Shown here piece after piece: positions 4,780-31,906 of a DNA stretch of 41,140 bases. Position numbers and translations under genes: made by a program. Source of the stretch: Candidatus Pacearchaeota archaeon. GTDB taxonomy: Archaea; Nanobdellota; Nanobdellia; Pacearchaeales; GW2011-AR1. The stretch spans positions 1-41,140 of the forward strand of contig VGKP01000007.1 of the NCBI GenBank assembly GCA_016866975.1, written 5' to 3'. Position 1 is the first letter of the stretch, and every line of letters begins with the position of its first letter. The notes below the pieces were generated by a model, which was not told where the DNA came from, did not search any database, and was given only the letters and a program-made list of their open reading frames with translations.

Positions 4780-4852
4780 TGGGGTATCTGGGAATCGCAC
4801 CCAGGCCGCCGCCACCCCATGGCGGAATCCTACTAAGCTGGACCAATACCCC
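4780..4852 (-). tRNA. tRNA-Pro(GGG)
   Basis: Cloverleaf: GGGGTAT/ATACCCC, GTCC/GGAT, CCGCC/GGCGG with loop ATGGGGT, CTGGG/CCCAG; CCA not encoded. Confidence 0.9.
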
Positions 4853-5064
4853 ATAAGGGAACTACGTTGCCCTTATCAACCCTCCTTATAATACTCCATA
4901 AGGGAACTACGTTGCCCTTATCAACCCTCCTTATAATACTCCATAAGGGAACTACGTTGCCCTTATCAACCCTCCTTATAATACTCCATAAGGGAACTAC
5001 GTTGCCCTTATCAACCCTCCTTATAATACTCCATAAGGGAACTACGTTGCCCTTATCAACCCTC
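4851..5064. repeat. Perfect 45-bp tandem repeat, 4 full copies plus a 34-bp partial copy
   Basis: Unit CCATAAGGGAACTACGTTGCCCTTATCAACCCTCCTTATAATACT at 4851, 4896, 4941, 4986, 5031. Confidence 0.95.
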
Positions 5065-5114
5065 TCAAAAATGTAGATGGGAGGGTTTTTAAATGAATTC
5101 TATTCGTTTCTTAT

Positions 5115-8249: not shown

Positions 8250-8338
8250 ATACTTGAATATCTTACATCTTCTTAAATCTTTTTATAAGGTGATTTTGAG
8301 AGAAAAGCTTAAAGAGACTCTTTTCTCGATAGTGTTGT

Positions 8339-8420
8339 GCCCAGATCGCATAATGGCATTGCGCCGCACTCGAAATGCGGTTTCCGCAAGGATCTCGAGG
8401 TTCGATTCCTCGTCTGGGCG
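8339..8420 (+). tRNA. tRNA-Ser(CGA)
   Basis: GCCCAGA/TCTGGGC, CCGCA-CTCGAAA-TGCGG, long variable arm TCC-GCAA-GGA, CGAGG-TTCGATT-CCTCG, G73. Confidence 0.92.
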
Positions 8421-8482
8421 TTTTCCTGGATTAATAAGATCGAGAGAGTTAAAATTAAATAAGCCTTAATTAGAGTAAAAAC

Positions 8483-11820: not shown

Positions 11821-12841
11821 CCTTTCTCATCTCTTTAAACTCTATAATCTTCTTAATAAATCCAGGGATTAGACCGCCTATCGTAAAATTAGGATGTTCA
11901 ATAACTCCTATTTTATTACCAAGACTTATTATTAGTATAGTTTTTTTTGTATTATATTCTCTTAGACGCATTTTTCTCTCTAAAGCAATTATGTTGTATG
12001 CTGCTATCTTTGCCTGTCTTTCGGCATTATGGGCAGTCTTTTCTATTTCTATACTGTTTGCATCGCCTGCAGAAAAGATGTTTGGAGCGCTTGTCTGCAA
12101 GAACTTATTTACTTGAATCTTGCCATTTAATATCAATTTTTCTTTGATCTTTCCTTTTATATATTCAGTATTTGGGACTATTCCTGTGCATACAAAGACT
12201 ATGTCTGCATTTATCTTAAGTCCTTTTTTGGTGATGAACATCTTACCTTTTCTTTTATGAACAAATTGGCCAGTCATTATCTTTATTTTGTGGTCTCTGA
12301 GCCATCTCTGACAATAATCTCTTGAATAGTCACTGTATCTTTCCATTATCTTGCTTCCAGAATGTACTATCGTAATCTTCTTTTCAGGGTATTTCTCAAC
12401 TATCTCTGCAGCAATTTCAACTCCGACAAGCCCGCCTCCAATCACAAGAACACTATTTGCCTTTGTCAAAATCTTGTTGGTCCAACATATATTATCTGAA
12501 CGAAGAGAAGCTCCAGATCCAAATTCCTTGAAAGGAGGAGAATATCTGGAACCCGTACAGAGCAAAGCATAGTCAAAATAAATCTTCTTATTATTGACTT
12601 TCACATAATCTAGACACAATTCCTTAACCATTCCAACCACTACTTTCGCTTTCTTTAGGTAATTTTTGTGAGGAGATTGAATTCTTTTAAGATGCTCAGG
12701 TTCGACTATTGCCTGTAAGACACCTGGAGTGAACTCAAAATAATTCTTTGAGTCTATTAGAGTAACATCAAATTCATTCTCAAGAATTCTGGCTGATGTT
12801 GCTCCTGCAAATCCTCCTCCTATTATCACAACCTTTTTCAT
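11813..12841 (-). CDS. FAD/NAD(P)-dependent pyridine nucleotide-disulfide oxidoreductase (NDH-2/AIF-like)
   Basis: Two Rossmann motifs VVIIGGGFAG and VLVIGGGLVGVEIA; IFSAGD. Confidence 0.85.
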   Translation of the reverse strand: MKKVVIIGGGFAGATSARILENEFDVTLIDSKNYFEFTPGVLQAIVEPEHLKRIQSPHKNYLKKAKVVVGMVKELCLDYVKVNNKKIYFDYALLCTGSRYSPPFKEFGSGASLRSDNICWTNKILTKANSVLVIGGGLVGVEIAAEIVEKYPEKKITIVHSGSKIMERYSDYSRDYCQRWLRDHKIKIMTGQFVHKRKGKMFITKKGLKINADIVFVCTGIVPNTEYIKGKIKEKLILNGKIQVNKFLQTSAPNIFSAGDANSIEIEKTAHNAERQAKIAAYNIIALERKMRLREYNTKKTILIISLGNKIGVIEHPNFTIGGLIPGFIKKIIEFKEMRKVR

Positions 12842-12884
12842 ACTTCAGAGTGTAGAATGTTGCTTAAAAAGCTGACGTATCATT

Positions 12885-13010
12885 ATGTCAAGGAACTTGA
12901 CTAAAACTCCAGCTTAAAAGCTGGAGTTGTTTCTTGAGCATCCAAACCTCAAGAATCTTCGATTCTTGATGGCATCCAAGAACAATGTTCTTGGTGAAAC
13001 GAGCGCCTGC
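12885..13010 (+). repeat. Double-hairpin repeat element, type B variant with two extra hairpins, 3' truncated
   Basis: First ~58 bp nearly identical to 1528 copy; extra TCAAGAATC-TTC-GATTCTTGA and CCAAGAAC-AAT-GTTCTTGG; ends at AAACGAGCGCCTGC. Confidence 0.85.
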
Positions 13011-13054
13011 TCAACCCTCTTCTTACTTTCTTCTATTCTCTTATTCTCGAGCAT
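13011..13054 (-). pseudogene. N-terminal stub of a probable HEPN-type partner gene
   Basis: ATG overlapping the stop of the upstream MNT gene, MLENKRIEESKKRVE, then runs into the repeat element; HEPN identity inferred from position and remembered DPANN N-termini. Confidence 0.45.
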
Positions 13055-13637
13055 TACTTACCATCCTATAATAATTCTCCGCCCCGAAGAGCAAAAGATG
13101 CTTATTCAACGATTCATTGAGTATATTAATCTTCTCGCGCTTTGATACCATTTCATGTGCGCTCTTGCTTGAGATAACTTGTATTTCAAAATTTTTAGTG
13201 AATTGTGAAGCGATGTTTTGTATGGTTTTCTCTATTTCAAGTATTCTTTCTTCGTTTTCTATTATCAGAAGAACATCTATATCTCTTGGATTGCTTTTCT
13301 CTACATACGAGCCAAAAATAAGCAAGACGAAGAAATCAAGATTAAGCCTACTCCGTACGTCTTGTGTGAAGAGGCTCAGGATTTTATCTTTGTCTAATGC
13401 TTGACGGCTTCTGAGTGCTTCTATATAACTGAGCTCTTGATGATTTTTTCGGTAATTGAGTGATATTAATCGTTTTTCGTCTTTTATGAGGTAGTTATTC
13501 CCAAGGAGGTCGCGGATTGAGCGATGGATCAGAGGATATGGCTTTTTGAGCTTCTCGGCTATCTCTTTTATGCTGAAGCGCTTGTCTATCTGTGAAACAA
13601 ATAGCTTCAGTATTTCAATTTGTGTTTTGGTAAGCAT
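13041..13637 (-). CDS. wHTH + minimal nucleotidyltransferase (MNT) domain protein
   Basis: N-terminal FSIKEIAEKLKKPYPLIHR HTH; LIFGSY......DIDVLLI NTase motif. Confidence 0.85.
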   Translation of the reverse strand: MLTKTQIEILKLFVSQIDKRFSIKEIAEKLKKPYPLIHRSIRDLLGNNYLIKDEKRLISLNYRKNHQELSYIEALRSRQALDKDKILSLFTQDVRSRLNLDFFVLLIFGSYVEKSNPRDIDVLLIIENEERILEIEKTIQNIASQFTKNFEIQVISSKSAHEMVSKREKINILNESLNKHLLLFGAENYYRMVSNARE

Positions 13638-13661
13638 TTTATAACTTTGTGGATATACTTA

Positions 13662-13780
13662 TGTCGGGAACCGATGAAAACCACACCTTTCAAGGTGTGG
13701 TGGTTCCCGAGCATCTCCAAAAACTAGCGCCTGCAACAAACCTCGGCTTTTAAGCCGAGGTGGCGCATCGTTTTTGTGAT
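13662..13780 (+). repeat. Double-hairpin repeat element, complete type A copy
   Basis: TGTCGGGAACC...GGTTCCCGA outer stem, two inner hairpins, AAAAAC.AGCGCC/GGCGCATCGTTTTT stem. Confidence 0.9.
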
Positions 13781-13875
13781 ATATCTATTTAGTTATATTT
13801 AAAGGTTTGCTTTCTTTGATAAGTTAGGGATATTTCTTGGCGTGATAAGTGACAAGATTGGCCAGTTAATCCCAT

Positions 13876-14670
13876 TTATGTAAACTCTACAACATTTCCA
13901 GTCAGATATTTTGTTACAGGTGTGAATGGGAAGAAAGCGTACTCGTACCAAGCAGTCCAGACAAAATCTTTAATCCAAGTGTCTCGCATTTCTGGACGCA
14001 TTTTGTAGGAAAACGCAGAGTCTGCCTTTCCAACTCTGGAGAGACCATGATTACATCCACATCCGTGTTCCCAGAAAAAGCCTTCTTGCGAAGACATACT
14101 TTGAATTGTCAATTGCATCGGGAATACTTTTTGTGCATGGAGTGAAGCATCCCAACCGCGCGCGTTTTGCTTGTCATCTTCGCTGAAGCGCAGTGGTCTG
14201 ATTTCACAGACTTCCTCCCGTGCCAGAGGTGCAAGATGCACATGATAAAACGAAGCAGGGAGATCATAGCCGAATTCTTTGAAAAGATTCTTTCCGATCC
14301 TCACAATTCTTGCCTTGTCTTCATAGTCTTTATCCGCTTGATTAAGCCTTGACTCAATACTTGCAAAGTCAGGATATTCTTGCACTCTAAAATCGTGTCC
14401 ATAAAAATTCAACGCTTCATCAGCTAAGGTACCAAAGAGTCCCTGAAATGCTTGCTTGTAACCGACTAAATCCGTTCGTTTGTCATAGAGATCGACTTTG
14501 CCCGCATGGAGCTTGTGATGAAATAGTTGTGCCATGTGCATATATTCATCTCTGAGGCGCATACGGTAGTCAGGGCTTCCTGCAGCAATATCTTGCCAGA
14601 CTTTAGGTAATTCTTCTACTCTTGAAGCACACTCTCCCACTATATGTACATGTACATGTTCATTATTCAT
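13876..14670 (-). CDS. Unknown His/Cys-rich protein, probable metal-binding
   Basis: 264 aa; EHVHVH N-terminus, HHKLH, WEHGCGCNH; translationally coupled to the upstream ATPase (ATGA overlap). Confidence 0.75.
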   Translation of the reverse strand: MNNEHVHVHIVGECASRVEELPKVWQDIAAGSPDYRMRLRDEYMHMAQLFHHKLHAGKVDLYDKRTDLVGYKQAFQGLFGTLADEALNFYGHDFRVQEYPDFASIESRLNQADKDYEDKARIVRIGKNLFKEFGYDLPASFYHVHLAPLAREEVCEIRPLRFSEDDKQNARGWDASLHAQKVFPMQLTIQSMSSQEGFFWEHGCGCNHGLSRVGKADSAFSYKMRPEMRDTWIKDFVWTAWYEYAFFPFTPVTKYLTGNVVEFT

Positions 14671-15515
14671 ATTCCCTTCTCCAATATTTTATTGAACATA
14701 AAGGGGCGTACCTTATTCCTTTCCTTTTGAATATCATATTTCTCCTTCCATCGTTTGTGTCTTTGCCAATGCGCATCTCTGGTGGTTCTTTGGATGGAAT
14801 CGAGAAGCCGTGTAGCAGTACTCTTATTTGCAGCACTTATCTTCCTATAATCACACGTTTGTATTCCTTCATCCAATGAAAACGAAATCTCTTCGCTCTT
14901 CTGCTCCTTGTTCCTTATTTGAATAGACGGAATGCCAAATTCATCTGCAATTACCTTGATCTGAGCCGCCACCTTTTTACTGTTTTCTGTGGGTTCAGTT
15001 ACAATGATGAGTGCATCCACTCCGAGATAGAGACCATATCCAACCATATCAATGCCTGCAACAGAATCTACAACGACTACTTCATTTTCTTTGATCTTTA
15101 AAAGAGGAAGGTAATATTTGAGTGCTGAAATATAGGCATGGCTACAGCGATGGCCATAGAGGAGATCTTCATGCAATCCTCCGAAGACCATCAGCGAGAG
15201 TTGATGAGATAGCGAGTGAGCATATTTTTTTGTAAACTGATCAGGAGGAGAGAGTGAAAATTCTTTGAGGTTCTTCTCAGGCAGGTCTACATAGTAATCT
15301 AATTCTGAAAGACCTTGATACGCATAGAAGTCTCCTTCAGCGTGGTTGAGATACTTCGTCGGCATGGCAGGGTTCCACTGTAAATTTGTTGCAAGATCCA
15401 TATTATAGTCCGCATCGATAGCAAGCACGTTCTTTTTCTGAGAAGCGTGCATAGATAAGAGCCACGCTATGCTTGATTTCCCTGATCCACCTTTTCCTAC
15501 AACTGCTATCTTCAT
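14667..15515 (-). CDS. CooC/MinD-like P-loop (SIMIBI) ATPase
   Basis: MKIAVVGKGGSGKSS, IDAD.N..L, HRCSH, VVVDSVAG, DALIIVTEP. Confidence 0.8.
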   Translation of the reverse strand: MKIAVVGKGGSGKSSIAWLLSMHASQKKNVLAIDADYNMDLATNLQWNPAMPTKYLNHAEGDFYAYQGLSELDYYVDLPEKNLKEFSLSPPDQFTKKYAHSLSHQLSLMVFGGLHEDLLYGHRCSHAYISALKYYLPLLKIKENEVVVVDSVAGIDMVGYGLYLGVDALIIVTEPTENSKKVAAQIKVIADEFGIPSIQIRNKEQKSEEISFSLDEGIQTCDYRKISAANKSTATRLLDSIQRTTRDAHWQRHKRWKEKYDIQKERNKVRPFMFNKILEKGI

Positions 15516-15544
15516 AGATGTCTTACAAAGCGGAATCTTTAAAA

Positions 15545-15566
15545 CATTACTGATTCTCATTCTCAA
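15545..15566. promoter_or_regulatory. Fur-box-like operator between divergent fur and ATPase genes
   Basis: Minus strand TTGAGAAT-GAGAAT-CAGTAATG, tandem GAGAAT hexamers similar to the GATAAT Fur array. Confidence 0.5.
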
Positions 15567-15574
15567 TAAGAACT

Positions 15575-15955
15575 ATGGCAAAATTATCTAGACAAACACG
15601 GCAAAAGCACTTACTCCAGGAGGAACTAGACAAATTTACTTCTTTTTTCACGGGAGAAGAACTGTTTGAAAAAGCACGAAAGAAAGACTCTAAACTCGGA
15701 CTTGCAACAGTATATCGCTTTCTGAAGGATCTTCGTGAAAAAAGGGTACTTCATGCCTACAGCTGTAATCGTCAGATGTTGCACTCTACAGAAGAAGGGG
15801 GTCATTGTCATTTTATCTGTGAGCAGTGTGGAAAAACGGAACACTTTCATCTGAATAAGATTGATTTTCTCAAACAAGGGATTAAAGGAGACGTGTGTCA
15901 TTTTCAGCTGGATGTGCATGGAATATGTGAAGCTTGTAAGAAACATATGGTTTGA
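15575..15955 (+). CDS. Fur-family metalloregulator
   Basis: GLATVYRFL..L, HCHFICEQCG, G.CEAC. Confidence 0.9.
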   Translation: MAKLSRQTRQKHLLQEELDKFTSFFTGEELFEKARKKDSKLGLATVYRFLKDLREKRVLHAYSCNRQMLHSTEEGGHCHFICEQCGKTEHFHLNKIDFLKQGIKGDVCHFQLDVHGICEACKKHMV

Positions 15956-16052
15956 ACTACCCACCCACTCTTTGTACCTTTCTTCATCCATAAACTAATA
16001 CCTCTCTTAGAGATTATAAAAATATGCACATGAAGATGCCAGAAAGGTAAGA

Positions 16053-16232
16053 TGCGGGAGGGAGGATTCGAACCTCCGTAGGCACTAAGCCACAGGATTT
16101 CCTAAGGAAACCAAGGTTTCCTTTTGGATCAACCTTCCTTTGAAGAAAGGTTCACCCATCCTGGTTGGATTCCGCTCTAACGAGCGAATGACTTCTTAAG
16201 TCCTGCCCTTTTAACCGCTCAGGCACCCCCGC
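16053..16232 (-). tRNA. tRNA-Leu(TAA) with 96-nt intron at 37/38 (intron 16099-16194)
   Basis: GCGGGGG/CTCCCGC acceptor, CAGGA-CTTAAG|A-TCCTG anticodon arm, long variable arm, GGAGG-TTCGAAT-CCTCC; BHB with CUUA/UAGG central helix. Confidence 0.92.
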
Positions 16233-16264
16233 ATAAAAAGAGTTAGAAAGGTATGTTAAAAAAC

Positions 16265-16423
16265 TTACTGTTCTGTATTTATCTTGCTTATTATCTCTGA
16301 TGACTTACTATTGACATGGCGAATGACTTCATCTGCAGAAGCAGAAGGATTTTTATCCTTAAATTTCATGGCTTCTGAAGCTCCAGCAATTACGGCCATT
16401 TTCATCATTTTTTTTTCATCCAT
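16265..16423 (-). CDS. Small hypothetical protein (52 aa, below ORF-track cutoff)
   Basis: MDEKKMMKMAVIAGASEAMKFKDKNPSASADEVIRHVNSKSSEIISKINTEQ; clean ORF with helical, protein-like pattern. Confidence 0.6.
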   Translation of the reverse strand: MDEKKMMKMAVIAGASEAMKFKDKNPSASADEVIRHVNSKSSEIISKINTEQ

Positions 16424-16481
16424 AAGTCTTTGCATGATGCGTAGTTTAAAAGCATTCCTGTCTTTATATGATATAATTAAC

Positions 16482-16751
16482 TCATTCTTGAACTGTCCTT
16501 CCCACTATTGAAAATGATCCTTGTCCATTTTCAGGACTAGTACTATTTGATTGATTATTTGATTTGCCTTGCCTTTTAATATTTAAATTCTCTGAGGCAT
16601 TTGCAAATACTTTGACTGCTTCTTCGCTTATTGCTCTTGCTGAAGAAGCGCTTTCTTTTGGATATGAGATAATATAAAAAATTATCGCACTTATAAGCAG
16701 AAGAGTAATTGTTGTAGATAATAGAATGTTGAGGAAAGCTTTTTTGTTCAT
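16482..16751 (-). CDS. Small single-TM hypothetical protein
   Basis: N-terminal hydrophobic helix, polar tail. Confidence 0.55.
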   Translation of the reverse strand: MNKKAFLNILLSTTITLLLISAIIFYIISYPKESASSARAISEEAVKVFANASENLNIKRQGKSNNQSNSTSPENGQGSFSIVGRTVQE

Positions 16752-16845
16752 ATGTAAAAAACGTTTATCGAGTATAAAAATCTAACTTGAGGAAGATTTA
16801 AATAGAAGTTCGTTTTATTCGGTATAGATTTGGTAAAAAAAGAGG

Positions 16846-17685
16846 ATGGAAACACTTAATCAATTAAAGAATGAATTACGTTTGAGGGGATTCTCTCCCC
16901 TCACTGTGAGAAATTATTGTTTCTTTGTCGATAAGTTTCTTAAAAGCAGCAATAAGAGTGACTTGGATGTGAATATTGATGATGCAAAGACATATCTTTC
17001 TGGCTTATTCGAAACTAAATCTAAAAACACTATTATGCTTGCGGCTGCCGCTCTGAAATTTTACTTTGTAGAGATACTAAAGAAAGATTTTGCACAAGTT
17101 AAGATGCCTAAGAAGGAGAAAAAACTACCGGAAGTCCTTTCTAAAGATGAGATAAGGTTACTTATTAATTCTACAGACACTGAGAAATCAAGACTTATGA
17201 TATCTCTTCTTTATTCTTCAGGACTAAGAGTATCTGAACTTGTCAATATGAAAGTGCAAGAAATCAATTTCAAGGAATTTACTGGATGGGTAAGAAGAGG
17301 TAAGGGATCTAAAGACAGAATGATTGTACTTTCCGAGGGACTTGTTAAAGATATTGAATCATATCTTAAAGATAGGAATTATACTTATCTTTTTTCCAAA
17401 GATAAACCCTTGACTACCAGGAATATACAGAAAATAATAATGGGCCTTAGGAAGAGGACTGGCATACAGAAGAAAATAACCCCTCATACTTTCAGGCATA
17501 GCTTCGCAACTCATCTTCTCGAGCAAGGAACGGACATAAGGATAATACAGGCTATGCTCGGGCACAGCTCCCTCAATACTACCCAGATATATACACATAT
17601 CTCTGGAGAACAGCTTAAGAAAGTCAAGAATCCCCTCGATCTCCTGCAGGTTCATACCTCTATGCCGCAACAAATCCCAGATTAA
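16846..17685 (+). CDS. xerA: Archaeal Xer-type tyrosine recombinase
   Basis: N-terminal LRLRGFS..T.RNY; GLRVSE, GKG.K.R, HTFRHSFATHLLE.G, LGHS...TT..YTH (R-K-H-R-H-Y). Confidence 0.9.
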   Translation: METLNQLKNELRLRGFSPLTVRNYCFFVDKFLKSSNKSDLDVNIDDAKTYLSGLFETKSKNTIMLAAAALKFYFVEILKKDFAQVKMPKKEKKLPEVLSKDEIRLLINSTDTEKSRLMISLLYSSGLRVSELVNMKVQEINFKEFTGWVRRGKGSKDRMIVLSEGLVKDIESYLKDRNYTYLFSKDKPLTTRNIQKIIMGLRKRTGIQKKITPHTFRHSFATHLLEQGTDIRIIQAMLGHSSLNTTQIYTHISGEQLKKVKNPLDLLQVHTSMPQQIPD

Positions 17686-17770
17686 GGTGCAAAGATTATT
17701 GCTTAGAATCTATTGTAGACACTTTTTAGAAGTAAGATATCATTAAAAGCAAGTATGTTCTTGATGTGAT

Positions 17771-17999
17771 GGCTGAACACGGATAAATCGGTTGTCCTGG
17801 AAAGGATGTGACCATCGAAGCCTCTGTCAGGAAAGCAGCTATAAATCAGGTGACTGGACTATAACTCACTTGACGAAACCTGTACCTGTTAAGCTTTGCA
17901 TGATGGCGCGGAAGAGATCACCTTGATAACATGTCGCAAGGTTAAGATTGATACGGCGATGTTGAAGGCACTTCTTCCACCGAGTCCAGCGCGTCAGCC
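17771..17999 (+). ncRNA. Candidate structured ncRNA of unknown class (~230 nt)
   Basis: Ends pair GGCUGA/UCAGCC; GGAA-tetraloop hairpin 17790-17813; several G.U-containing helices; loop 17854-17860 complementary to 17983-17989; TTAAAAG TATA-like box at 17743. Confidence 0.55.
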
Positions 18000-18009
18000 G
18001 ATATTCAGT

Positions 18010-18159
18010 ATGGCTAGGAAAGCAAGGAAAAAGGCAGGCAAGAAACGTTCTGGAGGGCGTGGAGCGAGTGGCAAGGGTAAGAATTCTAAGATTCGAAAGA
18101 TTAAGGCGTGGTTAAGAAGTAGAGGGAAAAAGAAAGTTAAGAAAAAAAGAAGAAGTTAA
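18010..18159 (+). CDS. 49-aa extremely basic (K/R-rich) protein
   Basis: MARKARKK...KKKRRS; 25 of 49 residues K/R, no D/E; the ORF-track start at 17896 lies inside the RNA structure and is unlikely. Confidence 0.65.
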   Translation: MARKARKKAGKKRSGGRGASGKGKNSKIRKIKAWLRSRGKKKVKKKRRS

Positions 18160-18223
18160 TTCTCCCGGTTTTTATATTCTTACTTCTTTCTCGGTAATTA
18201 CTCGTTCAGATATACTGAAAAAC

Positions 18224-18985
18224 TTATCTTAGTGAGCTATCAATCACTTTCTTGAATTCAGTGTAAGGCAAGTTTCCAGCAATCATCTTTCCGTTGATGA
18301 AGAATGAAGGCGTGCCTTGCACTCCTGATTTTGCACCATCTTCGAGGTCTTTCAGGACGTCGTTTCTTAGTGTCTTGCTTTGCAGGCAGGAAGTTATATT
18401 ATAACCCATTTCGCTAGCCCATAATATCAGCTTTTCTTCTGGAAGGCTTTCATAGTTCTGGAATAATTTGTCATGGTACTTGAAGAATGATTCATCTCCT
18501 CCCTCTTTATGGACGCAGAGAGCGGCCTCTGCTGCTTGCATTGCTTGAGGATGCGCTTGATAAATAGGGAAATTCCTAAATATCATCTTGACTTTTCCTG
18601 TGCTTATGTAATCTCTTTTAATCAGAGGATATGTTTCTTTGCTAAAGACTACGCAGTAAGGGCATTGAAAGTCTGAGAACTCTACGATTGTGACTGGAGC
18701 ATTGCTATTTCCATTCACCGGCCTTCCAGAACCTATGACATCTGTCATGTTAATTACAACATTTCCATTTGGTTGCGATTTGAAATACCAGAACAGTGCA
18801 ATTACTACAAATATGCCTATTATTATCAGATAAGTCTTTTTGCCTGATTGAATCAATTGAGGAGATGATTTGTTTGAACTAGAATTTGGCATATGTACTC
18901 CATGCTTAGCCTTCTGATGCTGTGAAAGGCCATCGTTATCCTTGAATTCCTGATTGCATATGTCGCATCTTGCTCTTTCTGCCAT
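18224..18985 (-). CDS. DsbA-like thioredoxin-fold protein with N-terminal C2H2 zinc finger and TM anchor
   Basis: CDIC...F.....L.QH.KAKH; TM helix; IVEFSDFQCPYC; GVQGTPSFFING. Confidence 0.88.
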   Translation of the reverse strand: MAERARCDICNQEFKDNDGLSQHQKAKHGVHMPNSSSNKSSPQLIQSGKKTYLIIIGIFVVIALFWYFKSQPNGNVVINMTDVIGSGRPVNGNSNAPVTIVEFSDFQCPYCVVFSKETYPLIKRDYISTGKVKMIFRNFPIYQAHPQAMQAAEAALCVHKEGGDESFFKYHDKLFQNYESLPEEKLILWASEMGYNITSCLQSKTLRNDVLKDLEDGAKSGVQGTPSFFINGKMIAGNLPYTEFKKVIDSSLR

Positions 18986-19072
18986 TATAGTTATAAAAAT
19001 AATTATGCTTTTAAGCTTTTGCAAAATTTCTGGCCTTATGGAAGTGTTTAAATAGCAGAGGACATTTGTTGA

Positions 19073-21349
19073 GTGATGAAAGGGGTGAGTGCTAGTGTTT
19101 TTGTTTTGTCTGTTACTTTATTCCTCGTTATATTTTCACTAAGTTTTGTTTTGGCTGAGGAGGCCAAAGTTGTTGCTTCTTCCGAAACTGCTGCAGGCGT
19201 CTCTGCTTCTCCTGATTCTTCAAAGAGTGCTTCTACCAATACTGATGTAAAGACTGAAAGTGGCAGTTCATCTTCAAGCGCAATACCTGAGGAATATAAA
19301 GATGAGAAGCTTGAGGGCAGTACTTCTTTGACCCCTGGGAGTTGGCTTTATTGGTGGGAGGGTGTACGTACAAATTTTAGATCAGATGATGATAATGCCC
19401 GTCAAAAAGCACTTGAAGTTAAGTCTTCTATAGAAAAGGGAGACTTTGAGGCTGCTAAGAAGGCATATGAATCATACAGAGAATATTCAGCAAAATTAGA
19501 GAAAGAAGCCAATCCTGAAAAGAAAGAGAAAATACAGAGAGATTCTGCAGCTGTCAAGAATACAATTAAAGAACTTAAAGAAAGAGTTCCTGAAAAAGAC
19601 CGTAAGGAGCTTGTGGATGGAGTTGTTCAGCAAGCAGAGTTGAATGCAAAAGCAGTCGCTGTTGCTGATAAGATAAAGACACTTTGTCAAGAACTTGCAA
19701 AGATTGATCCTTCCCAATATGCAAAAACCTGTAGAGTTGACAAAGAAACTCCTAAGTGGAGACAGGATCAAGACAAGAAACTAACCGATTCTCAAAAAGA
19801 AGAAGTAAAAAAATTTAAGGATATCATGATTCAATGTATGCAGAGCAAAGGGGCGCAATGCAAGTGTGATGAAATCACTTTTAAGGACTTTGCAACACGG
19901 TGCAGTATTGTTGCTCCCCTTGTTAATGCGTGTGAGAATAAGGGAGATAAAGCATCGTGTGAGAAAATGGATGATGCGACAGAAGGGATTGAAGAGACAT
20001 TGCCTGAGCACTTGCAAGATGCTTTCGCAGATGTTCAAGAAGGTATTAATCGAGAGCAATTTAGCAGATTTTTACCCAAGGAATGTGAAGAAGCAAAAGC
20101 CAAGACTCCTGAAGAATGCTCTCTTGTCATGATTGAGAAACATGCTCCTGAATTATGTAAAGAAGAACTTAAAAAGCAAAAAGTAACAAATGAGCGGGAT
20201 GCACGTAGAATCTGCGAAGAAATAATGTTCAAGGAAAATACGCCAAAGGAATGCATTGATGCAGGAATAAAAGATCCCAGAAAGTGCGGTACTTTTATGT
20301 GTGAGAAAAATTTCCCGCAAGAGTGTAAAGATGCTGGTTTGAGTTGCAGTGATAGAAATTCTCCTAGAAGATGCGAAGAGATAATGAGATTACAAGGTGG
20401 TGGAGAGAGACGACCCCAGTTTTCTTCTACTTCAGGCTCAAGATGCAGGGAGATAAAGGATCCTGAAGACAGACTAAAGTGTTTTGACTCTGTTGATGCT
20501 GCAGTCAATAATGTTGCAGGCCATTATGGGGGTTTTGGTCCTGAAAACTTTGGCAGTTTTAACGATGAATTTTCATTTGAGGGCAATGGTCCTGGCGTAT
20601 CAGAACAAGGAAAGAGAATGAATACTGGCAAGGGTGTGAATCCTGCGAATTTTCCGCCTGAGTGCAGGCAAGCAGGTGCGACTACCAAAGAAGCCTGTGA
20701 GAAGATACTGATTCAGGCAAGCAAGAATCGAGCGAACAAGATGAGAGAATATGAAGAGAACTTTGCTCGACAATGTCTTGAGAAAGGGGGAAGATGGGAT
20801 TGCAGTTTCTCCAGTATAGATCCAAGCAATCCTTGCAGATGTTTCCAGGATGAACAGAGATTCAATAATGCCAATGAGGGCAATCAGTTTGGAAAAGATG
20901 ATCGGCGTTTTGATAATCGTCAACAAGGAAATCAAGGTAAATTCCCTGAACCTTGCAGGCAGAAAGGTGCAACTACTCCTGAGGCTTGCAGAGCAGTGAT
21001 GGAAGAATGGGGCAGGCAGCAGAGGGATCAGGGTGAACAACAGAGGCGAGATAATGATCAGAGGCAGAGAGAATTCCAGCAGCAGCAGGACCAGTTTAGA
21101 CAGGAGCAAGAGCGGTTTAGGCAAGAGCAAGACAAATTCAGAAATCAGCAGCCTCCTCAGCAGCCTCCTACTGGGACACAGCCTCCTGCAGGCACTCAGC
21201 CTCCATCAGAGACCTTACCTCCACCTTCGTCGCCACCTCCATCATCTCCTCCTCCACAAGATACTTCTTCTAGTTCTGGGACATCGGGAAGCAGCATTAC
21301 TGGTGGAGTTATTGCGGAAAATGATTTCTTAAGGTATTATTTTAGATAG
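19073..21349 (+). CDS. Large secreted Cys-rich repeat protein with Q/P/S-rich tail
   Basis: Signal peptide ending VLA; repeats FPPECRQAGATTKEAC, FPEPCRQKGATTPEAC, LPKECEEAKAKTPEEC; ends ITGGVI..NDFLRYYFR. Confidence 0.85.
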   Translation: MMKGVSASVFVLSVTLFLVIFSLSFVLAEEAKVVASSETAAGVSASPDSSKSASTNTDVKTESGSSSSSAIPEEYKDEKLEGSTSLTPGSWLYWWEGVRTNFRSDDDNARQKALEVKSSIEKGDFEAAKKAYESYREYSAKLEKEANPEKKEKIQRDSAAVKNTIKELKERVPEKDRKELVDGVVQQAELNAKAVAVADKIKTLCQELAKIDPSQYAKTCRVDKETPKWRQDQDKKLTDSQKEEVKKFKDIMIQCMQSKGAQCKCDEITFKDFATRCSIVAPLVNACENKGDKASCEKMDDATEGIEETLPEHLQDAFADVQEGINREQFSRFLPKECEEAKAKTPEECSLVMIEKHAPELCKEELKKQKVTNERDARRICEEIMFKENTPKECIDAGIKDPRKCGTFMCEKNFPQECKDAGLSCSDRNSPRRCEEIMRLQGGGERRPQFSSTSGSRCREIKDPEDRLKCFDSVDAAVNNVAGHYGGFGPENFGSFNDEFSFEGNGPGVSEQGKRMNTGKGVNPANFPPECRQAGATTKEACEKILIQASKNRANKMREYEENFARQCLEKGGRWDCSFSSIDPSNPCRCFQDEQRFNNANEGNQFGKDDRRFDNRQQGNQGKFPEPCRQKGATTPEACRAVMEEWGRQQRDQGEQQRRDNDQRQREFQQQQDQFRQEQERFRQEQDKFRNQQPPQQPPTGTQPPAGTQPPSETLPPPSSPPPSSPPPQDTSSSSGTSGSSITGGVIAENDFLRYYFR

Positions 21350-21380
21350 ATTTATATCAAAGTTTCTCTTAGATAATTGT

Positions 21381-21986
21381 ATGGATCTGTTAGAGATGAG
21401 CAGAGGCAGACTCCAAGTATGGGAAGAGACGAAGGAGTATGAATCCTTTGTTTTGAATCAGAGAGCATCTGCTTGCTTGACACAGGAAGAGCCCGTAAAA
21501 TATTCTCTTCAGGGATGGCAAGTATATCGTGGGAGAGAATGGACGGTCTTGGGAGAGCCTTTGAAAGTCGAATTTGAGCAAGTAAAATATTCAGAAGTCG
21601 AACGTTTTCGTGCCCTATTTGCTTTTGCTGACGGCGTTTCCCGTAATCGTTCTCTTTCTAAAGCTGAATGCCTTATGTTGGCGGCGTCAAGTGAAGGCAT
21701 TGTTGAATTTGCTTCCATTTTAGCTCTTCAGTTGCCAACTCCTTCTCGTGCAGAGTATGGGCATTTTGCTCCCGAACAGTATGGTGCTTTTTTCTTGAGA
21801 GCATCGAATATCTCACTTGAGAAACAGCAGGGAATTTATGTCCATGCTTTTCCCCTTTCTAGTCAATTTGTTTCTGAAACTTCTTACACTGAAGCAGTTT
21901 GGCCGCGAATTGTCTCAAGAGGTATTTTGTATCAATTGGAGGCTAAATTGATAAGTGAAGTGAATGATTCTCTGAAAATGCAATGA
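21381..21986 (+). CDS. Hypothetical protein
   Basis: 201-aa ORF following the Cys-rich gene; no motif recognised. Confidence 0.55.
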   Translation: MDLLEMSRGRLQVWEETKEYESFVLNQRASACLTQEEPVKYSLQGWQVYRGREWTVLGEPLKVEFEQVKYSEVERFRALFAFADGVSRNRSLSKAECLMLAASSEGIVEFASILALQLPTPSRAEYGHFAPEQYGAFFLRASNISLEKQQGIYVHAFPLSSQFVSETSYTEAVWPRIVSRGILYQLEAKLISEVNDSLKMQ

Positions 21987-22004
21987 AATATTTAATTAGA
22001 ATAG

Positions 22005-22628
22005 TTATCTTGCAGCATCTGCCTGCTTCTCTGCTTCGTTCTTCTTCATCATGGCGAAGCTATCCATTGTCCCCTTCGCAGCATTGAGGATTTCGTTTGC
22101 AAGTGCATCTGCCATCTTAGTCCTCTTTCCGAAAGATTTTCCATAAGCTCCCTGAATCATCCATCTCAATGCTAGGTTTATTCTTCTTAATGGACTGCAA
22201 TCTACGGCTTGAGGGTATCTTGCCCCTCCAGATTCTATTACTGTGATTTCGTCCCTTGGAGAAGCATTCTCAATCGCTTCTACTAATACTTGAATAGGGT
22301 TCTTATTTGTCTTTTTCTGTATTGTTTCTAGAGTCTGAAGAACTGTCTTCATATTACGATTGTATTTTCCAGATGACCAGCTAGTTATTACCTTGTGTTT
22401 CTTTCCAACATGTCCCGGTACTGCCAGACGGTTTGCTAAGCGTTCAATTATTGGTATTTTCCCCACTGCAAACTTCTCCTTTCTTCTGCCATATGACTTG
22501 AGGAGGAGCTTGTTACCGAGATTTAGATAAGGTTTAAGAGAAGGGTCTTTGACTACGATATCTTGCGTATCGTAGATATCAAAGATTTTGAATGATTCGC
22601 TATGTTCAGTTTGTGATTGGGTTGTCAT
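22005..22628 (-). CDS. rps7: 30S ribosomal protein uS7
   Basis: IERL.N, NP.QVLV.AIEN..PR.E...I..GG..Y..AVD.SP.RR...ALR, E..A..AR. Confidence 0.95.
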   Translation of the reverse strand: MTTQSQTEHSESFKIFDIYDTQDIVVKDPSLKPYLNLGNKLLLKSYGRRKEKFAVGKIPIIERLANRLAVPGHVGKKHKVITSWSSGKYNRNMKTVLQTLETIQKKTNKNPIQVLVEAIENASPRDEITVIESGGARYPQAVDCSPLRRINLALRWMIQGAYGKSFGKRTKMADALANEILNAAKGTMDSFAMMKKNEAEKQADAAR

Positions 22629-22999
22629 GCCCGTTTTCTCCTTATTTTTAAATGATAATGTATGTATCCTGTTTTTCTTTCTTCAGCAAAAACCTCAAAT
22701 TTATTGGCTCTATCACCTAAAATGTTAATGAGATTCTGAGCGCCCTCTTGCATTCTCATTAAGCAATACGATTTTCTTTGTAAGAGAGTCCTTAGGCTTT
22801 TCTGAGATTTTACTATCTCAGTATTTGTAGACATTACATCCGTTTCTCTTCCTACTTCTAGTCCCTGTATACATTCTGCAACATACTCAAAATAAGATAG
22901 TTCTTTCCTTTTTCTTTCAGAGAGTTCTTTAGGAGTGAGATGATCGTAATGATGTATTGTAGGATTTAAAGCAGATGGGGGAGATTGTAGGAATGTCAT
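22625..22999 (-). CDS. Hypothetical protein inserted between rps12 and rps7
   Basis: 124-aa ORF, coupled to both neighbours. Confidence 0.6.
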   Translation of the reverse strand: MTFLQSPPSALNPTIHHYDHLTPKELSERKRKELSYFEYVAECIQGLEVGRETDVMSTNTEIVKSQKSLRTLLQRKSYCLMRMQEGAQNLINILGDRANKFEVFAEERKTGYIHYHLKIRRKRA

Positions 23000-23001
23000 G
23001 T

Positions 23002-23424
23002 TTATCTTCTACCTTTCTCGATCTTTCCTTTGACGAGAAGATGCAATGGCTGCTCATTTACTTTTATGACTTGGAAGCGGATTCCTGGAATATCTCCCTT
23101 AGAACGACCCATACGACCGCCGATGCGCTCGATTATGACTTCATCGTGTTCGTCGATGAACTTTTGTGCTAGGTTGCGCGGAATGAATGCACCTACTTGA
23201 ATACTATTCTTAATAAGCTGGACTTTGCAACACTTTCTCATTGCAGAGTTTGGTTGTCTTGCTTCTTTCTGGAATTTAGAAATGACTATTCCTTTTGCCT
23301 GTGATGAACCTTCGAGTGGATCAACTTTTTCTCTAAGGCCCAGCATCCTTTTTTTATACATGCGCTGACTCCACTTAAACTTCTTCTGGCGCTTCATCAT
23401 CTTTCGTGCATTCATTAAACCCAT
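23002..23424 (-). CDS. rps12: 30S ribosomal protein uS12
   Basis: QPNSA.RKC..VQLIKN, IDEHDEV, GDIPG.RF.V.KVN. Confidence 0.97.
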
Positions 23425-23582
23425 ATTTTGAAGAGCAAAAAGTGGTTTTTAAACCTTTAGCTTAAAGAATTTATTTGCTGATGAAATCATTAATATCATT
23501 GAATAAATAGGATAATTAAAGCTCGTATAAATCCTCTAAATTTAAGTAGAAGTTAAAACCCAAAGTGCTTTGTAACATTTCA

Positions 23583-23996
23583 CTACACTATCTTTAGATC
23601 CATACCGAACGTGTCCTTGATTATCTGCTGTAGCTCATCTTCCCTTCTTCTGTTGCGGCCGATTAGGGCAGCCTTGCTCTGGCTTCCTGCAGTAAGAATC
23701 AATGTACCTTCCTTTATTTCCAATGAATGGAATGTAATTGGCGCGACTATATCTTTGATGAACTTTTCTGCTTCTTCGACATCATTTGCTTCCCCTATTA
23801 TTCTTATTTTCTTGCCCAATTTTTCCTGTATGCTGTGGATGTGAGAAGCACCTGGGCCGATAGCTTTCGCCATGAGGGCCCTTGGGACAGCAAATATTAT
23901 CATATTATTGTAATTGAAACATTTTCTAGTCTTGACTTTTGCCGTGGAATCAAGCAGGTTTATGTATCTGATAGTTTGTAGATCAAATGTTGTCAT
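23583..23996 (-). CDS. nusA: Archaeal NusA-like KH-domain protein
   Basis: KAIGPG...I, ALIGRN.R two KH GxxG-like loops; canonical position before rps12. Confidence 0.85.
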   Translation of the reverse strand: MTTFDLQTIRYINLLDSTAKVKTRKCFNYNNMIIFAVPRALMAKAIGPGASHIHSIQEKLGKKIRIIGEANDVEEAEKFIKDIVAPITFHSLEIKEGTLILTAGSQSKAALIGRNRRREDELQQIIKDTFGMDLKIV

Positions 23997-24086
23997 TCTT
24001 AATTAAAAATTTAACTTCTTCCTCTTATTTTCATTTTATTTCTGAAGTATATAAACTTATTGGTGATTTTCTCGTCGGCAAATGAA

Positions 24087-24566
24087 TTAATTCTCCATCT
24101 GTATTTTTACTTTATGCTTCTTGAGAAAGTTATTTTGAGCCTGGTACATCACTTTAACAAACTTTTCTAGCTCCTCTTTAGATGGTTTATCTTTTAACAT
24201 TACAAGACTTCTTCCATCAAGGAGTTCTATAATAAAATAACTCTTTACTGAAAAATAATAATAGAGGCCGCAAACAAGTGTAATAAAAAGATAAATCCAC
24301 ATGGCTGAGAGATAGGAAGCCTTATTTGTGATAAGGAATGTTACGAACATACCTGCCCCAATAACTCCAAAAATTGCAGTAAGTTTGAGAGAAAGAGAAC
24401 TTTTTTCAGTGATTTCTCGGTATTTTGAGCTGATGGTAGTAAATGGAATTCCGTAATGTGCGTGTGTGGCAAGGTTCTTATAAGAATAGTCTACCCCTCT
24501 ATCTTCAAGGGCAATTGTAACACGTTCAGTTCCACGTTTTTGATCGATACTTATTTTAGTTGACAT
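24087..24566 (-). CDS. Two-TM hypothetical membrane protein
   Basis: Two hydrophobic helices; occupies the usual rpl30e position. Confidence 0.7.
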   Translation of the reverse strand: MSTKISIDQKRGTERVTIALEDRGVDYSYKNLATHAHYGIPFTTISSKYREITEKSSLSLKLTAIFGVIGAGMFVTFLITNKASYLSAMWIYLFITLVCGLYYYFSVKSYFIIELLDGRSLVMLKDKPSKEELEKFVKVMYQAQNNFLKKHKVKIQMEN

Positions 24567-24571
24567 GACTT

Positions 24572-27500
24572 TTATACCTCAGACTTCTTTTTGGTTTTTG
24601 CTTTTACTTTTTCTAGATCTTTGTTTACCAATGGCCCTGTTATCTTGACGAGAAGGCCTGGAAGGCCGGTACCAACAGGGATAGCCTGATTTAGGAGAAT
24701 GTTTTCAATTACTGAACTTAGTTCATCTCTTCCGCCTTGAATTGTTGCATTGATAAATTGCTTGTCAGGAATCTCGAATGTAGCTCGTGCAAGGATGCTT
24801 GCTTTCTCAGAAATAATACCCATACGTGTGACTCCTTTAACTACGCCTGAGGAAGTCATGGCGTCTGCAATCAATTTGAAATGTCTCTCATTTATATCTA
24901 GGCCTTGTGATTGAAGTACATCTTTAATCTCATTTATTATTGTCTGTCTTGCAGCTTCAATACCCAATACTCTTGCCGTATCATGAATATCGTTTGATTT
25001 CACTCTGTCTTTGTCGACGCCTTTAACTTTGATTATCTCCTCGAGATTTGAACCTGAAGTCAATACGACATATTCTTTTCCTCTATTAGCAATAACTACT
25101 TGTTTGACATTCTTCACACCAGAGACCACGGTCTCTTTCATCTTCTCTTTTAGTTTATATATTGCTTTGAAATCCATGTCAGGGACATGAACGCTTATCT
25201 TTGACTCATTGCCCTTGACACTGAATCCTTTCTCCTGTAGCCTCTCTATTATCTTCTGCCCACCTGCATGAACTGTCTTCAGGGCCTTTTGATCCAAGGC
25301 TATCTCTATCTTCTTGTTTGCGAAGTCTATCTTTATCTCAGATATTATCTCCTTTAGCTTTACTTCCTTGATCTTTTCAGCAATTGCCTTTGCGTCTTTC
25401 TCATTATTATATTCCTTCTCAAGAGCTACTTCCATGAGAGGAGTTGAAGGCTGTTTTCTTGCATCCAAAATTTCAATTATTCTTGGGAGACCCTGAGTGA
25501 TTTGCATTTGTGCGACTCCTGCGAAGTGGAATACGTTCAATACCATCTGCGTAGATGCTTCTCCAAAGCTTTGTGCAGTTATTACTCCTACTGCTTCGCC
25601 TGGAGAGACTTTACTTTCTTTCATATGCAACTTTGCCACATCTTTCCCATCATCTCCATAGACGAATTGTACAATGTTTTCGGACGCATCTCTTACTGTC
25701 CCGTCGTAAGCAACCTTAAGGTCTTGAAGTGCGCTTACAAGCCTTCTGTATAAATAACCTGATTTTGGTGTTCTGAGAGCCAGATCCATAAGGGAGTCTC
25801 TTCCAGTTATTGCTCCAAAGAAGAATTCACTTGGTTTCAATCCACCAAAGAATGACGACTTGATGAAACCACGCGCTTCTGGGCCTATGTCTCCAGGTTT
25901 AAAGAAAGAAAGCGTCCTTTGAGTATAACCAAAGTTGATACGTTTATTCCAGAGAGATTGCTGACCTACGCAACAACCAATCTGAGTAATATTAAGCATG
26001 CTTCCAGCAGCCTTCGCGCTAATCATCTTATTGACATTTCCATCAATAGGGAAGTTAGCCTGTACAACCTTTCCTATCTCCGTCCGCACCTCGTTTAGAA
26101 TCTGGGAGATCTTTATTTCTCTTGTCTCTTCAAGTGTCTTTCCAGGTAATGGAGTAAGTTCGCCTTCCTTAAAATTATTTATGACTTCTTGTGTCTTACT
26201 GTCTGCCTGCATGACTATCTCATCAGTAGTTTTCTTAACTTTTTCTGATACATTCAAGTCTTGAACCGATAGAGTGTATCCTTTCCTAGAGAGATATATG
26301 GAACCAAGTACGAATGCTTTCATTAATGAATCTACTGCGATATCTCTTCCAAATTCTTTGTCTAATTCCTTTATCATCTCACCATCTTCAACTCCGAATG
26401 AACCGCTGCCTGTCAATTCTGCTGGGATTTTTACTCCTGAATTCTTTGGCATCACCTGGGCAAATACATCCAAACCTTTCAATTCTTGCCCTTTCAATGT
26501 ATTGATTACTCCTGCAGAGAATAAAGCCTGATCGGCGTCACCTTTCTTCATGCTATCTTTCCCTAGAAGATAAGCGCCAGTCACTGCGTCAGCTATTGTG
26601 CCTACTAAGTTCATGTTGTTCTTTGAGGATATTATATTTGCATTGACATCCAAGAGTATCTTGGCCTCTGCTAATGCCTCTTCAGTTTGAGGACTGTGAA
26701 TGTTCATCTCGTCGCCATCATAGTCTGCGTTATAAGGGGTAGCAGCTGCAGGGTGCAATCTAAATGTCCTGTTCGGTAAGACTCTTACATAATGCGCCAT
26801 AAGGCTTTGCTTGTGCAAGCTCGGATGACGATTGAAAAGAACTATATCTCCATCCCTTAGATGTCTCTCTATCTTGTATTTGGGCTGTATCTCAGCACAG
26901 AGCTCTTCTTTTAGCTCTTCTGTAATCCTCTTTCTCTTACCATCAGACCTTATAACATAATTAGCACCAGGATATGTTGAACCTTTTCTAATTAATTCTT
27001 TCATCGCCTCTATGTTAAGAGAAGTGACTGTCTCGGCCACTGTGATTATTTTAGCAATCTCGAATGGTACACCCACTTCATTTATCTTGATGAATGGGTC
27101 TGGTGAGACGACTGTTCTGCCCGAGTAGTTTACACGCTTTCCAGCTAGATTTTGACGTATTCTTCCCTCTTTTCCTTTTATTCTTTCTGTAATCGTCTTA
27201 AGAGGTTGTCCAGACCTATGCCTTGCAGGAGGTATTCTTGAAATATTATTGTCAAAGAATGTGGTTACATGATATTGCAGAAGATCCCAGAGGTCTTCTA
27301 TGATTACTTCAGGTGCTCCTGCGTTGAGGTTTTCCCAAAGTCTTTGGTTTGACCTGATTATGTCTGAAAGCTTATGTGTCAGATCATCCTCGCTTCTCTC
27401 TCCTGTGTCAAGAGTTATGCTAGGTCTTACAGTGACCGAAGGAACCAACAATAGAGAAAGTACTGCCCATTCTGGCCTGCACGTCTTTGCATTGATTCCT

Positions 27501-31493: not shown

Positions 31494-31846
31494 AGGAATG
31501 GAATCAGGTATTTGGAGAGTGATTCTTTTAAAAAGTTGCAAAAACAGCTTTTTAAACCTTTCGCAGAATGGATATTTTTTAACTTATAAAGTCCTAATGG
31601 CTGACTAACCTACTAAAATTCTTTTCATGATTATATCTTTTCAACAAAATATAAAACTGCGGAAATTTCAATAGGAAAACTTTAAAAGGAAGGAATAAGT
31701 CATTTTTACATGAACGCTCAAATTAGATTGGAGAATCCTCTGGATTCTCCTTATCGGCATTGAAAGTAAAATCAAATCTAGTCGGTACTCTCTCTTAATA
31801 TACTCTATCGGAGCACAGGCACTTTTAAGTGCTGGTTATTTTCATA

Positions 31847-31890
31847 CCTAAGAGAACCTACGGTTCCCTTATGGGTCAACCCTCCCTTTG
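31847..31890 (+). repeat. Palindromic element homologous to the 45-bp tandem unit and the tRNA-Leu intron
   Basis: CCTAAGAGAACCTACGGTTCCCTTATGGGTCAACCCTCCCTTTG; ends 16 bp before tRNA-His. Confidence 0.7.
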
Positions 31891-31906
31891 CATATTATCC
31901 TTCATA

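Follow-up and report, generated by a model that had tools for sequence, protein, structure and literature searches.

Canonical BHB introns of archaeal tRNAs lie at position 37/38, are cut by EndA and are ligated by RtcB. Among small repeats, REP elements and PATEs are gene-less hairpin derivatives of IS200/IS605 that are mobilised by Y1 transposases, while the Rickettsia palindromic elements (RPE) and the mycobacterial MIRUs are small palindromic repeats that are tolerated inside genes or between coupled genes. Both of the latter families are bacterial, and neither is known to reside in spliced tRNA introns. For the Thermoproteales, transposed (paralogous) tRNA introns have been described (Fujishima et al. 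2010, as summarised in PMC4090602), and the mechanism by which archaeal tRNA introns transpose is called unknown in the same review. A preprint of 2026 (10.64898/2026.10.13.758758), which deals with the tRNA genes of Asgard archaea, did not find a general route via copying, mobile elements or reverse transcription and leaves the route of arrival open.

For the still open question of how tRNA introns reach archaeal genes, the genome considered here offers a small and datable system. The window, i. e., the whole stretch of 41,140 nucleotides that was analysed, is contig C7 of a Candidatus Pacearchaeota archaeon (GCA_016866975.1, VGKP01000007.1), whose genome (G000 hereafter) comprises 0.8 Mb in 31 contigs with ~39% GC. 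Its tRNA-Leu(UAA) gene is organised as follows:

16053..16232, minus strand: tRNA-Leu(UAA) gene (Rfam tRNA model, 41.3 bits; strand read directly)
16232..16195 and 16098..16053, minus strand: 5' exon and 3' exon, ends set by alignment of intron-bearing and intronless orthologues
16099..16194, minus strand: intron of 96 nt at the canonical position 37/38, after G37

The intron coordinates had been proposed in a first-pass annotation of the sequence and are confirmed by the Rfam tRNA match and by the reading of the strand. ARAGORN missed the gene with its intron search off and, with the search on, found the gene and misplaced the intron. By a rule-based check, the BHB core consists of a complete anticodon stem (5/5 pairs), a central helix CUUA/UAGG (4/4 pairs) and two bulges of 3 nt each (AGA and AAA), and the splice boundary can be shifted by one A at most. 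With only two contiguous pairs, the outer helix h' falls short of the strict hBHBh' form, and the intron's own hairpins come next. That the intron is a chain of short hairpins, as noted before, is borne out by the MFE fold of the pre-tRNA with its four intron hairpins (z=-5.75 as compared to shuffles), above which the BHB-constrained fold lies by 6.2 kcal/mol.

Part of this intron belongs to a repeat family that is represented in the window by the following copies:

16097..16145, plus strand: copy in the tRNA-Leu intron (nhmmer E=1.8e-12; covariance model R2, 60.3 bits)
31843..31892, plus strand: copy upstream of tRNA-His(GTG) (31908-31979), ending 16 nt before the gene and in the same orientation as the tRNA (R2, 57.2 bits)
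4848..5072, plus strand: five tandem copies of a short repeat variant with a 45-bp period, directly upstream of tRNA-Pro(GGG) (4779-4853, minus strand; R2, 39-44 bits per unit)

As had been stated, three of the four tRNA genes of the window carry the repeat (tRNA-Pro and tRNA-His upstream, tRNA-Leu in its intron), and tRNA-Ser(CGA) at 8338-8421 is without it. The layout of the family, taken from 17 copies (alignment A1), is CCTAAGG, a hairpin of 8-9 bp, a short linker and a TCAACC(T/C)TCC box; in the copy at 16097..16145, the hairpin arms read AAGGAAACC and GGTTTCCTT and are followed by the box TCAACCTTCC. The hairpin is paired in 83.7% of the cells, with one compensatory pair (A-U in seven copies, G-C in seven), and was entered by hand for model R2, RNAalifold having predicted no pairs on the copy alignment.

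The proposal that the Leu-intron segment, the segment upstream of tRNA-His and the 45-bp Pro unit form a single family was upheld by a leave-window-out test: an nhmmer profile built from eight copies, all of them on other contigs, recovered the Leu segment (16100-16140, E=1.4e-9), the His-upstream segment (31847-31887, E=4.9e-8) and the Pro units (~5e-4). The significance of the alignment also holds against shuffling, as the best match of this profile in a Markov-shuffled genome reached E=0.72, far weaker than the real copies. Local alignment gives ~35 identical positions in 44 columns between the Leu intron and the His-upstream segment, and pairwise the 45-bp unit matches both segments clearly, with gaps. 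By blastn, the Leu copy is 93% identical over 43 nt to C4:13251-13293 and 93% over 41 nt to C5:45145-45105, and blastn-short with the Leu-intron segment against the whole genome returned 90-93% over 41-43 nt at C4:13251, C4:13161, C5:45145, C2:36169 and three places on C10. Tandem Repeats Finder describes the array next to tRNA-Pro (4845-5064) as 4.9 copies of a 45-bp unit with 99% matches; on reading the sequence, ~8 nt that resemble the 5' end of the tRNA are found repeated in each unit. A likeness of hairpin and box to the 3' end of 16S rRNA (helix 45 plus anti-Shine-Dalgarno) was considered and rejected, the family profile having no match there even at E<=10.

Across G000, nhmmer found 19 loci at E<=0.01 and R2 gave 41 matches, which were merged by hand into 23 loci. 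Nine of these are associated with tRNA genes, namely six in introns (Leu-UAA, Lys-UUU, Lys-CUU, Ser-GCU, Arg-UCU and Arg-UCG) and three upstream (two different tRNA-His genes and tRNA-Pro-GGG). The expected share is 7.8%, i. e., the fraction of non-coding DNA (no ORF >=100 aa) that lies <=100 nt from a tRNA gene, and the excess corresponds to a binomial p=3e-5 (p=4e-8 for introns alone), the repeat loci being non-independent events in this test. The covariance-model scan of the genome has recovered the tRNA association; the earlier term "tRNA-targeting" captures the enrichment but is too strong, with 14 of the 23 loci elsewhere. The family is a genome-wide repeat enriched at tRNAs and is not tRNA-specific. 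The two tRNA-His(GTG) genes have different acceptor stems (window 31908-31979 and C1:44598-44670), and the copies end 16 nt and 50 nt upstream of them, respectively.

The 14 loci away from tRNA genes are intergenic, in tandem arrays, or in frame in an ORF. Array periods in the family are 36, 45, 71 and 90 bp; arrays of 36 and 37 bp are among the non-tRNA loci, two of them at contig ends, and the 36-bp array, the shortest variant of the repeat, breaks the assembly at the contig ends C12:1-168 and C5:47590-47700. On C10, three 71-bp units lie between two adjacent ORFs on the same strand. Intergenic copies have no fixed orientation relative to the neighbouring ORFs. Two in-frame copies with a 90-bp period, read as ESVE(R/K)..FLRKESVEK, are part of a 306-aa ORF (C4:12509-13429, minus strand) that has only sub-threshold Pfam matches (HTH_11) and is uncertain as a gene. 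The family also has a long form of ~96 nt, in which its hairpin is interrupted by two extra hairpins of the types TCAGGGATT..AATCCCTGA and TCAAGAATC..GATTCTTGA:

C4:43258-43353: long-form repeat, intergenic
C4:33820-33905: long-form repeat, intergenic
C8:36345-36436: long-form repeat, intergenic
C2:56580-56665: long-form repeat, intergenic

A further long-form copy lies inside the tRNA-Lys(CUU) intron. Hairpins related to the long form (TCAAGAAC/GTTCTTGA) were also observed in the introns of tRNA-Met and tRNA-Thr(UGU). As a separate observation, an 86-bp unit occurs three times directly behind tRNA-Arg(UCU) (C9:7989-8250), each unit ending in a 21-nt copy of the 3' end of this tRNA (3' strand of the T-arm plus acceptor) and containing the box-like stretch CAACCTTC.

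In 40 relatives, R2 gave nine matches in G024, four each in G008, G021 and G037, two in G016, and none in 26 genomes, i. e., 0-9 per relative as compared to 41 in G000. Eight of the 25 matches in relatives lie in or beside tRNA genes, several of them beginning near the 37/38 splice junction, and intergenic copies are present in relatives, too. Matches to an exact 15-nt box pattern were all but missing from these genomes, which R2 shows to be an effect of sub-type and not an absence of the family. The stretch of G016 that matches the His-upstream region proved on inspection to hold no such copy, and tRNA-Pro has no array alongside in G016 and G008. The repeat module is older than this species, patchy in its distribution and markedly expanded in G000.

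The history of the Leu intron was read from tRNA-Leu(UAA) orthologues, for which the 40 relatives were searched with the pre-tRNA and the genes then extracted. An intron at the same site is found in ten same-genus genomes (G001, G002, G003, G004, G005, G007, G008, G010, G011 and G013) and in G024 of another genus, and the gene is intronless in G018, G035, G036 and G038. These orthologous introns measure 42-63 nt as compared to 96 nt in G000. Those of the genus share with it a start of AAGTC or ATGTC, a hairpin of 6-7 bp and a CAGGAT-like stretch, and in relatives without the repeat the 3' end of the intron reads TTAGGAA, TAAGAA or TGAGAA. A2, a MAFFT alignment of nine sequences of the genus (G000 among them) and of G024 from another genus of the family, with G003 and G004 read outside it, sets G000 apart by a single 52-nt block between CAGGAT and TTAGGAA, which divides the intron into three parts:

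16158..16194, minus strand: ancestral 5' part of 37 nt, made up of AAGTC, a hairpin of 7 bp and CAGGAT; its conservation extends over nine same-genus genomes and one genome of another genus
16106..16157, minus strand: 52-nt insertion specific to this species, a gap in all ten orthologues of A2
16099..16105, minus strand: TTAGGAA, old 3' end of the intron (BHB check), identical or with a one-base variant in relatives without the repeat

The greater part of a repeat copy, which lies antisense to the tRNA and continues into the older TTAGGAA, is contained in the insertion; upstream, the insertion also has an inverted partial copy of the box that pairs with the box in the fold. No target duplication is visible in A2. 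Both the helix strand UAGG and AA in the 3' bulge come from TTAGGAA, and since the repeat has the same sequence as its consensus end, the boundary of the insertion is ambiguous by up to 7 nt. The insertion may have been guided by this homology, or the family may itself have originated from such an intron end. As relatives have introns at the same site without the repeat, the BHB strand predates the repeat, and as G024 has one as well, the intron predates the genus. Judging by these sequence comparisons, the Leu intron and its BHB strand are very probably older than the repeat, which would have entered as a secondary insertion. The first-pass annotation had held that the end of the repeat supplies the BHB strand, and CCTTAGG is indeed contiguous with UAGG, but the repeat-free introns of relatives end alike and the strand was there before. 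The larger claim that the repeat created the tRNA-Leu intron does not survive the ten relatives that have a same-site intron without it: the comparison of tRNA-Leu(TAA) among relatives, which had been suggested as a check, returned 42-63-nt introns that the repeat did not make.

The nearest relatives by a conserved protein of 1153 aa are G016 (93%) and G008 (89%), others reaching 75-81%. In G008, the Leu locus is syntenic (1.4 kb of flank at 71.5% identity) and its intron is 48 nt long and without the repeat; from G016, a 62%-complete assembly, no tRNA-Leu(UAA) was recovered, and the insertion can therefore be dated only as after the split from G008. Four lake-water metagenome runs compared with 12501-32500 yielded no empty site: contigs over tRNA-Leu and tRNA-His match exactly, and the only joints at tRNA-Leu belong to Leu tRNAs of other organisms, with 20 replaced letters.

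In the proposed course of events, an old canonical BHB intron at 37/38 has grown from ~44 nt to 96 nt through 52 nt that were inserted at the DNA level, and the older splicing core (anticodon stem, CUUA/UAGG helix and two 3-nt bulges) was left intact. The enlarged Leu intron is presumably spliced by EndA and RtcB, for which the genome has one EndA gene (170 aa, N and C domains, PF01974 + PF02778; contig C9) and an RtcB gene (contig C1). A repeat copy would then be harmless in tRNA-Leu, with the whole intron cut by EndA and the exons joined by RtcB, and the enrichment in introns and tRNA flanks may come about mainly through tolerance of insertions there.

Further introns with the repeat allow for a comparison of the splicing structures and of the histories. 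The tRNA genes concerned include:

C1:46659-46795: tRNA-Lys(UUU), 62-nt intron at 37/38 (ARAGORN label Ser(tga), corrected by anticodon loop and orthologues)
C13:7681-7902: tRNA-Lys(CUU), 147-nt intron at 37/38 (ARAGORN label Val(gac), corrected by anticodon loop and orthologues)
C9:7843-7988: tRNA-Arg(UCU), 71-nt intron at 37/38 (ARAGORN label Gly(tcc), corrected by anticodon loop and orthologues)
C2:36132-36280: tRNA-Ser(GCU)

In the BHB check of the six repeat-bearing introns, the anticodon stem, the central helix (4/4) and the two 3-nt bulges are complete in five, Lys(CUU) having no more than 2/4 pairs in its central helix. The outer helix amounts to one or two pairs in four of the six, is absent in Lys(CUU) and has six pairs in Lys(UUU). 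Constraining the folds to the BHB costs 2.4-8.3 kcal/mol relative to the unconstrained MFE and leaves the intron hairpins in place. None of the six tRNAs has a second gene with its anticodon, so removal of the introns is required.

Antisense copies are found in the introns of Leu and Lys(UUU) and as the 3' copy of Lys(CUU), and sense copies in Ser(GCU), Arg(UCU), Arg(UCG) and as the 5' copy of Lys(CUU); in this last tRNA, a short-form copy in sense and a long-form copy in antisense together make up the 147-nt intron, whose two ends are inverted repeat ends. With sense copies, the helix strand is tRNA-specific and lies outside the repeat (GCAA for Ser, GAAG for both Arg), and the repeat end CCTAAGG/ATAAGG follows directly after A37 in three of the four (Ser-GCU, Arg-UCU and the 5' copy of Lys-CUU), Arg(UCG) having three bases before it. 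With antisense copies, the repeat end stands just before the helix strand; in tRNA-Leu, the copy adjoins the 3' splice site, and the strand UAGG that continues its CCTTAGG end pairs with C32-A35. Where a hairpin lies against the BHB core, it may stack there and take the place of the weak outer helix, in which case a nearly palindromic hairpin would be tolerated in either orientation.

tRNA-Ser(GCU) is intronless in eight same-genus genomes including G016 and G008, the G008 locus being syntenic. The sole Ser(GCU) gene of G000 has a 66-nt intron that opens with a 92%-identical copy of the species' own sub-type and shows no target duplication at the insertion. G005 has an unrelated intron in this gene, and G154, of another genus, a homologous intron with hairpin and box (83% identity over the whole pre-tRNA), in which the linker is CAAG as compared to GTGGG, that of the species' own sub-type, in G000. 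tRNA-Lys(UUU) is likewise intronless in eight same-genus genomes including G008, and G016 has a different intron of 48 nt; the G000 intron resembles the one in tRNA-Lys(CUU) of G016 (79% over the pre-tRNA). For tRNA-Arg(UCU), eleven same-genus genomes are intronless, G003 and G013 have introns of 14 and 18 nt without the repeat, and G016 has a 60-nt intron with a hairpin, the box CAACCCTCC and the same 3' end as in G000. tRNA-Arg(UCG) is intronless in five same-genus genomes, and G008 has an unrelated intron of 117 nt. Within the genus, the Ser(GCU) intron of G005 and the Lys(CUU) intron of G014 are identical in 38 of their 43 opening columns (score 60 vs. a shuffle maximum of 25), which indicates that introns have been exchanged between unrelated tRNA genes.

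At the level of the genus, recent gain or turnover of introns in association with the module is thus real. As for the order of events, the module entered a pre-existing intron in Leu and probably also in Arg(UCU), where the short repeat-free introns of two same-genus genomes suggest that the intron may have come first. The earlier idea of the repeat as a mechanism of intron gain consequently fails for tRNA-Leu but finds some support in the introns of Ser(GCU), Lys(UUU), Arg(UCU) and Arg(UCG), which are missing from most or all same-genus genomes examined; in Ser(GCU), Lys(UUU) and Arg(UCG), the module may account for the gain.

The repeat presumably inserts at the DNA level, given that copies lie in both orientations within introns and that the genome, at 89% completeness, gave no RVT_1 match that would indicate a reverse transcriptase; the same two observations rule against a retro-transfer of introns. 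At some intergenic sites, the unit is flanked by direct repeats of 8-15 nt, of variable length, that are taken from the end of a neighbouring gene. In G008, a single copy at a gene start (C2:100069-100117) has on either side a 15-nt direct repeat, by which the ribosome-binding region and the start codon are duplicated; its orthologue in G000 is the 36-bp array found at the contig ends of C12 and C5. On C10, every unit of the array opens with a 14-nt stretch that recurs once more behind the final unit. The ~8 nt in the 45-bp units that resemble the 5' end of tRNA-Pro are a further case. Apart from the internal hairpin, the family was seen to have no terminal inverted repeats. At three places or more, the genome has a gene for a Y1 (IS200-like) transposase:

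C10:122-589: Y1_Tnp transposase (155 aa, 77 bits), with fragments at the contig ends C6:1-153 and C12:26760-26912

Fragments at two contig ends point to a multi-copy IS that breaks the assembly. The hairpins that flank the Y1 gene are GC-rich and unlike the repeat family, and no conserved target tetranucleotide emerged. Two tyrosine recombinase genes were also found, one on contig C22 and the other in the window at 16846-17685 (Phage_integrase family, 157 bits), ~600 nt from tRNA-Leu(UAA), an arrangement that is kept in G008.

A tentative reading of the introns outside tRNA-Leu, possible rather than probable, is that the module is a DNA-level mobile unit which, on landing exactly at 37/38 of an intronless tRNA gene, would yield a new spliceable intron, with the hairpin that abuts the splice site standing in for the outer helix; Ser(GCU) would be the clearest case in this genome. 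Another account, which we regard as unlikely, starts from the introns: hairpin and box would primarily be part of mobile tRNA introns, as in Thermoproteales, and would have escaped to intergenic DNA and multiplied in this species, the Leu copy stemming from another intron. It would explain why eight of the 25 R2 matches in relatives are in or next to tRNA genes, several near the 37/38 junction, why G154 has a homologous hairpin-and-box intron in Ser(GCU) (83% over the pre-tRNA), why different tRNAs of the genus have introns in common (38/43 for G005 Ser(GCU) and G014 Lys(CUU)), and why the consensus end of the family equals the 3' end of the Leu intron. However, intergenic copies occur in relatives, too, for example, the gene-start copy of G008 with its orthologous array in G000, both orientations within introns are not expected from an RNA-level transfer of introns, and no reverse transcriptase was found in the genome (89% complete).

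Highly improbable is the view that a miniature element entered an intronless tRNA-Leu(UAA) and that its CUUAGG end paired with the anticodon loop to give a new BHB intron; the CCTTAGG end does run into UAGG exactly at the 3' splice site, but the same-site introns of ten relatives lack the repeat and nonetheless have similar 3' ends and the same 5' hairpin. Hardly credible, finally, is an account without mobility, in which hairpin and box are a convergent or selected structure of BHB introns and tRNA leaders: the hairpin of the intron copies does always adjoin the splice site, which suggests a structural role, but the Leu copy is 91-93% identical over 41-43 nt to copies on two other contigs, copies lie between ORFs, in tandem arrays and in frame inside an ORF, and the expansion is species-specific.

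For tRNA-Leu, the preferred reading remains a repeat that entered an older intron. One genome thus combines a repeat nested in an old intron (Leu), the repeat in introns absent from sister species (Ser, Lys, Arg), and free intergenic copies, so that two steps can be separated: the growth of an existing intron by insertion of a repeat, which is shown, and the creation of a new intron, which the module may bring about. A repeat at a splice site is not evidence of having built the intron. If the module indeed landed at 37/38 of intronless tRNA genes, it would be a concrete source of the gain of archaeal tRNA introns that is treated as unsolved in the literature.

Compared with canonical BHB introns, the Leu intron is alike in its 37/38 site, its anticodon stem, 4-bp helix and two 3-nt bulges, the EndA and RtcB genes of the genome, and the presence of an intron at this site across the genus. 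In contrast, it is about twice as long as its same-genus counterparts owing to the nested repeat, and its h' has two pairs, with a hairpin adjoining the core instead. As in the transposed introns of Thermoproteales, closely related sequences are found in introns of non-orthologous tRNAs (Leu, two Lys, Ser and two Arg) with a presumed spread at the DNA level. Unlike that case (PMC4090602), the six introns here all occupy the canonical site, and what they share is no more than a module of each intron, which also occurs in intergenic DNA, upstream of tRNAs, in arrays and within an ORF; in tRNA-Leu, the repeat entered an existing intron and created none.

With REP elements, PATEs and MITEs, the family shares that it is short, non-coding, multi-copy, hairpin-forming and expanded in one species, and a Y1 gene is present in the genome. 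It differs from MITEs in lacking terminal inverted repeats and a target duplication of fixed length (intron sites have no duplication, some intergenic sites direct repeats of 8-15 nt), and from REP elements and PATEs in that the hairpins flanking the resident Y1 gene are GC-rich and dissimilar to it. The two copies in frame in the 306-aa ORF and the three between adjacent same-strand ORFs recall RPE and MIRUs. The case differs from the nearest published parallel in that the unit shared by the tRNA introns is a module which also lives outside tRNA genes, as REP, PATE, MITE or RPE elements do.
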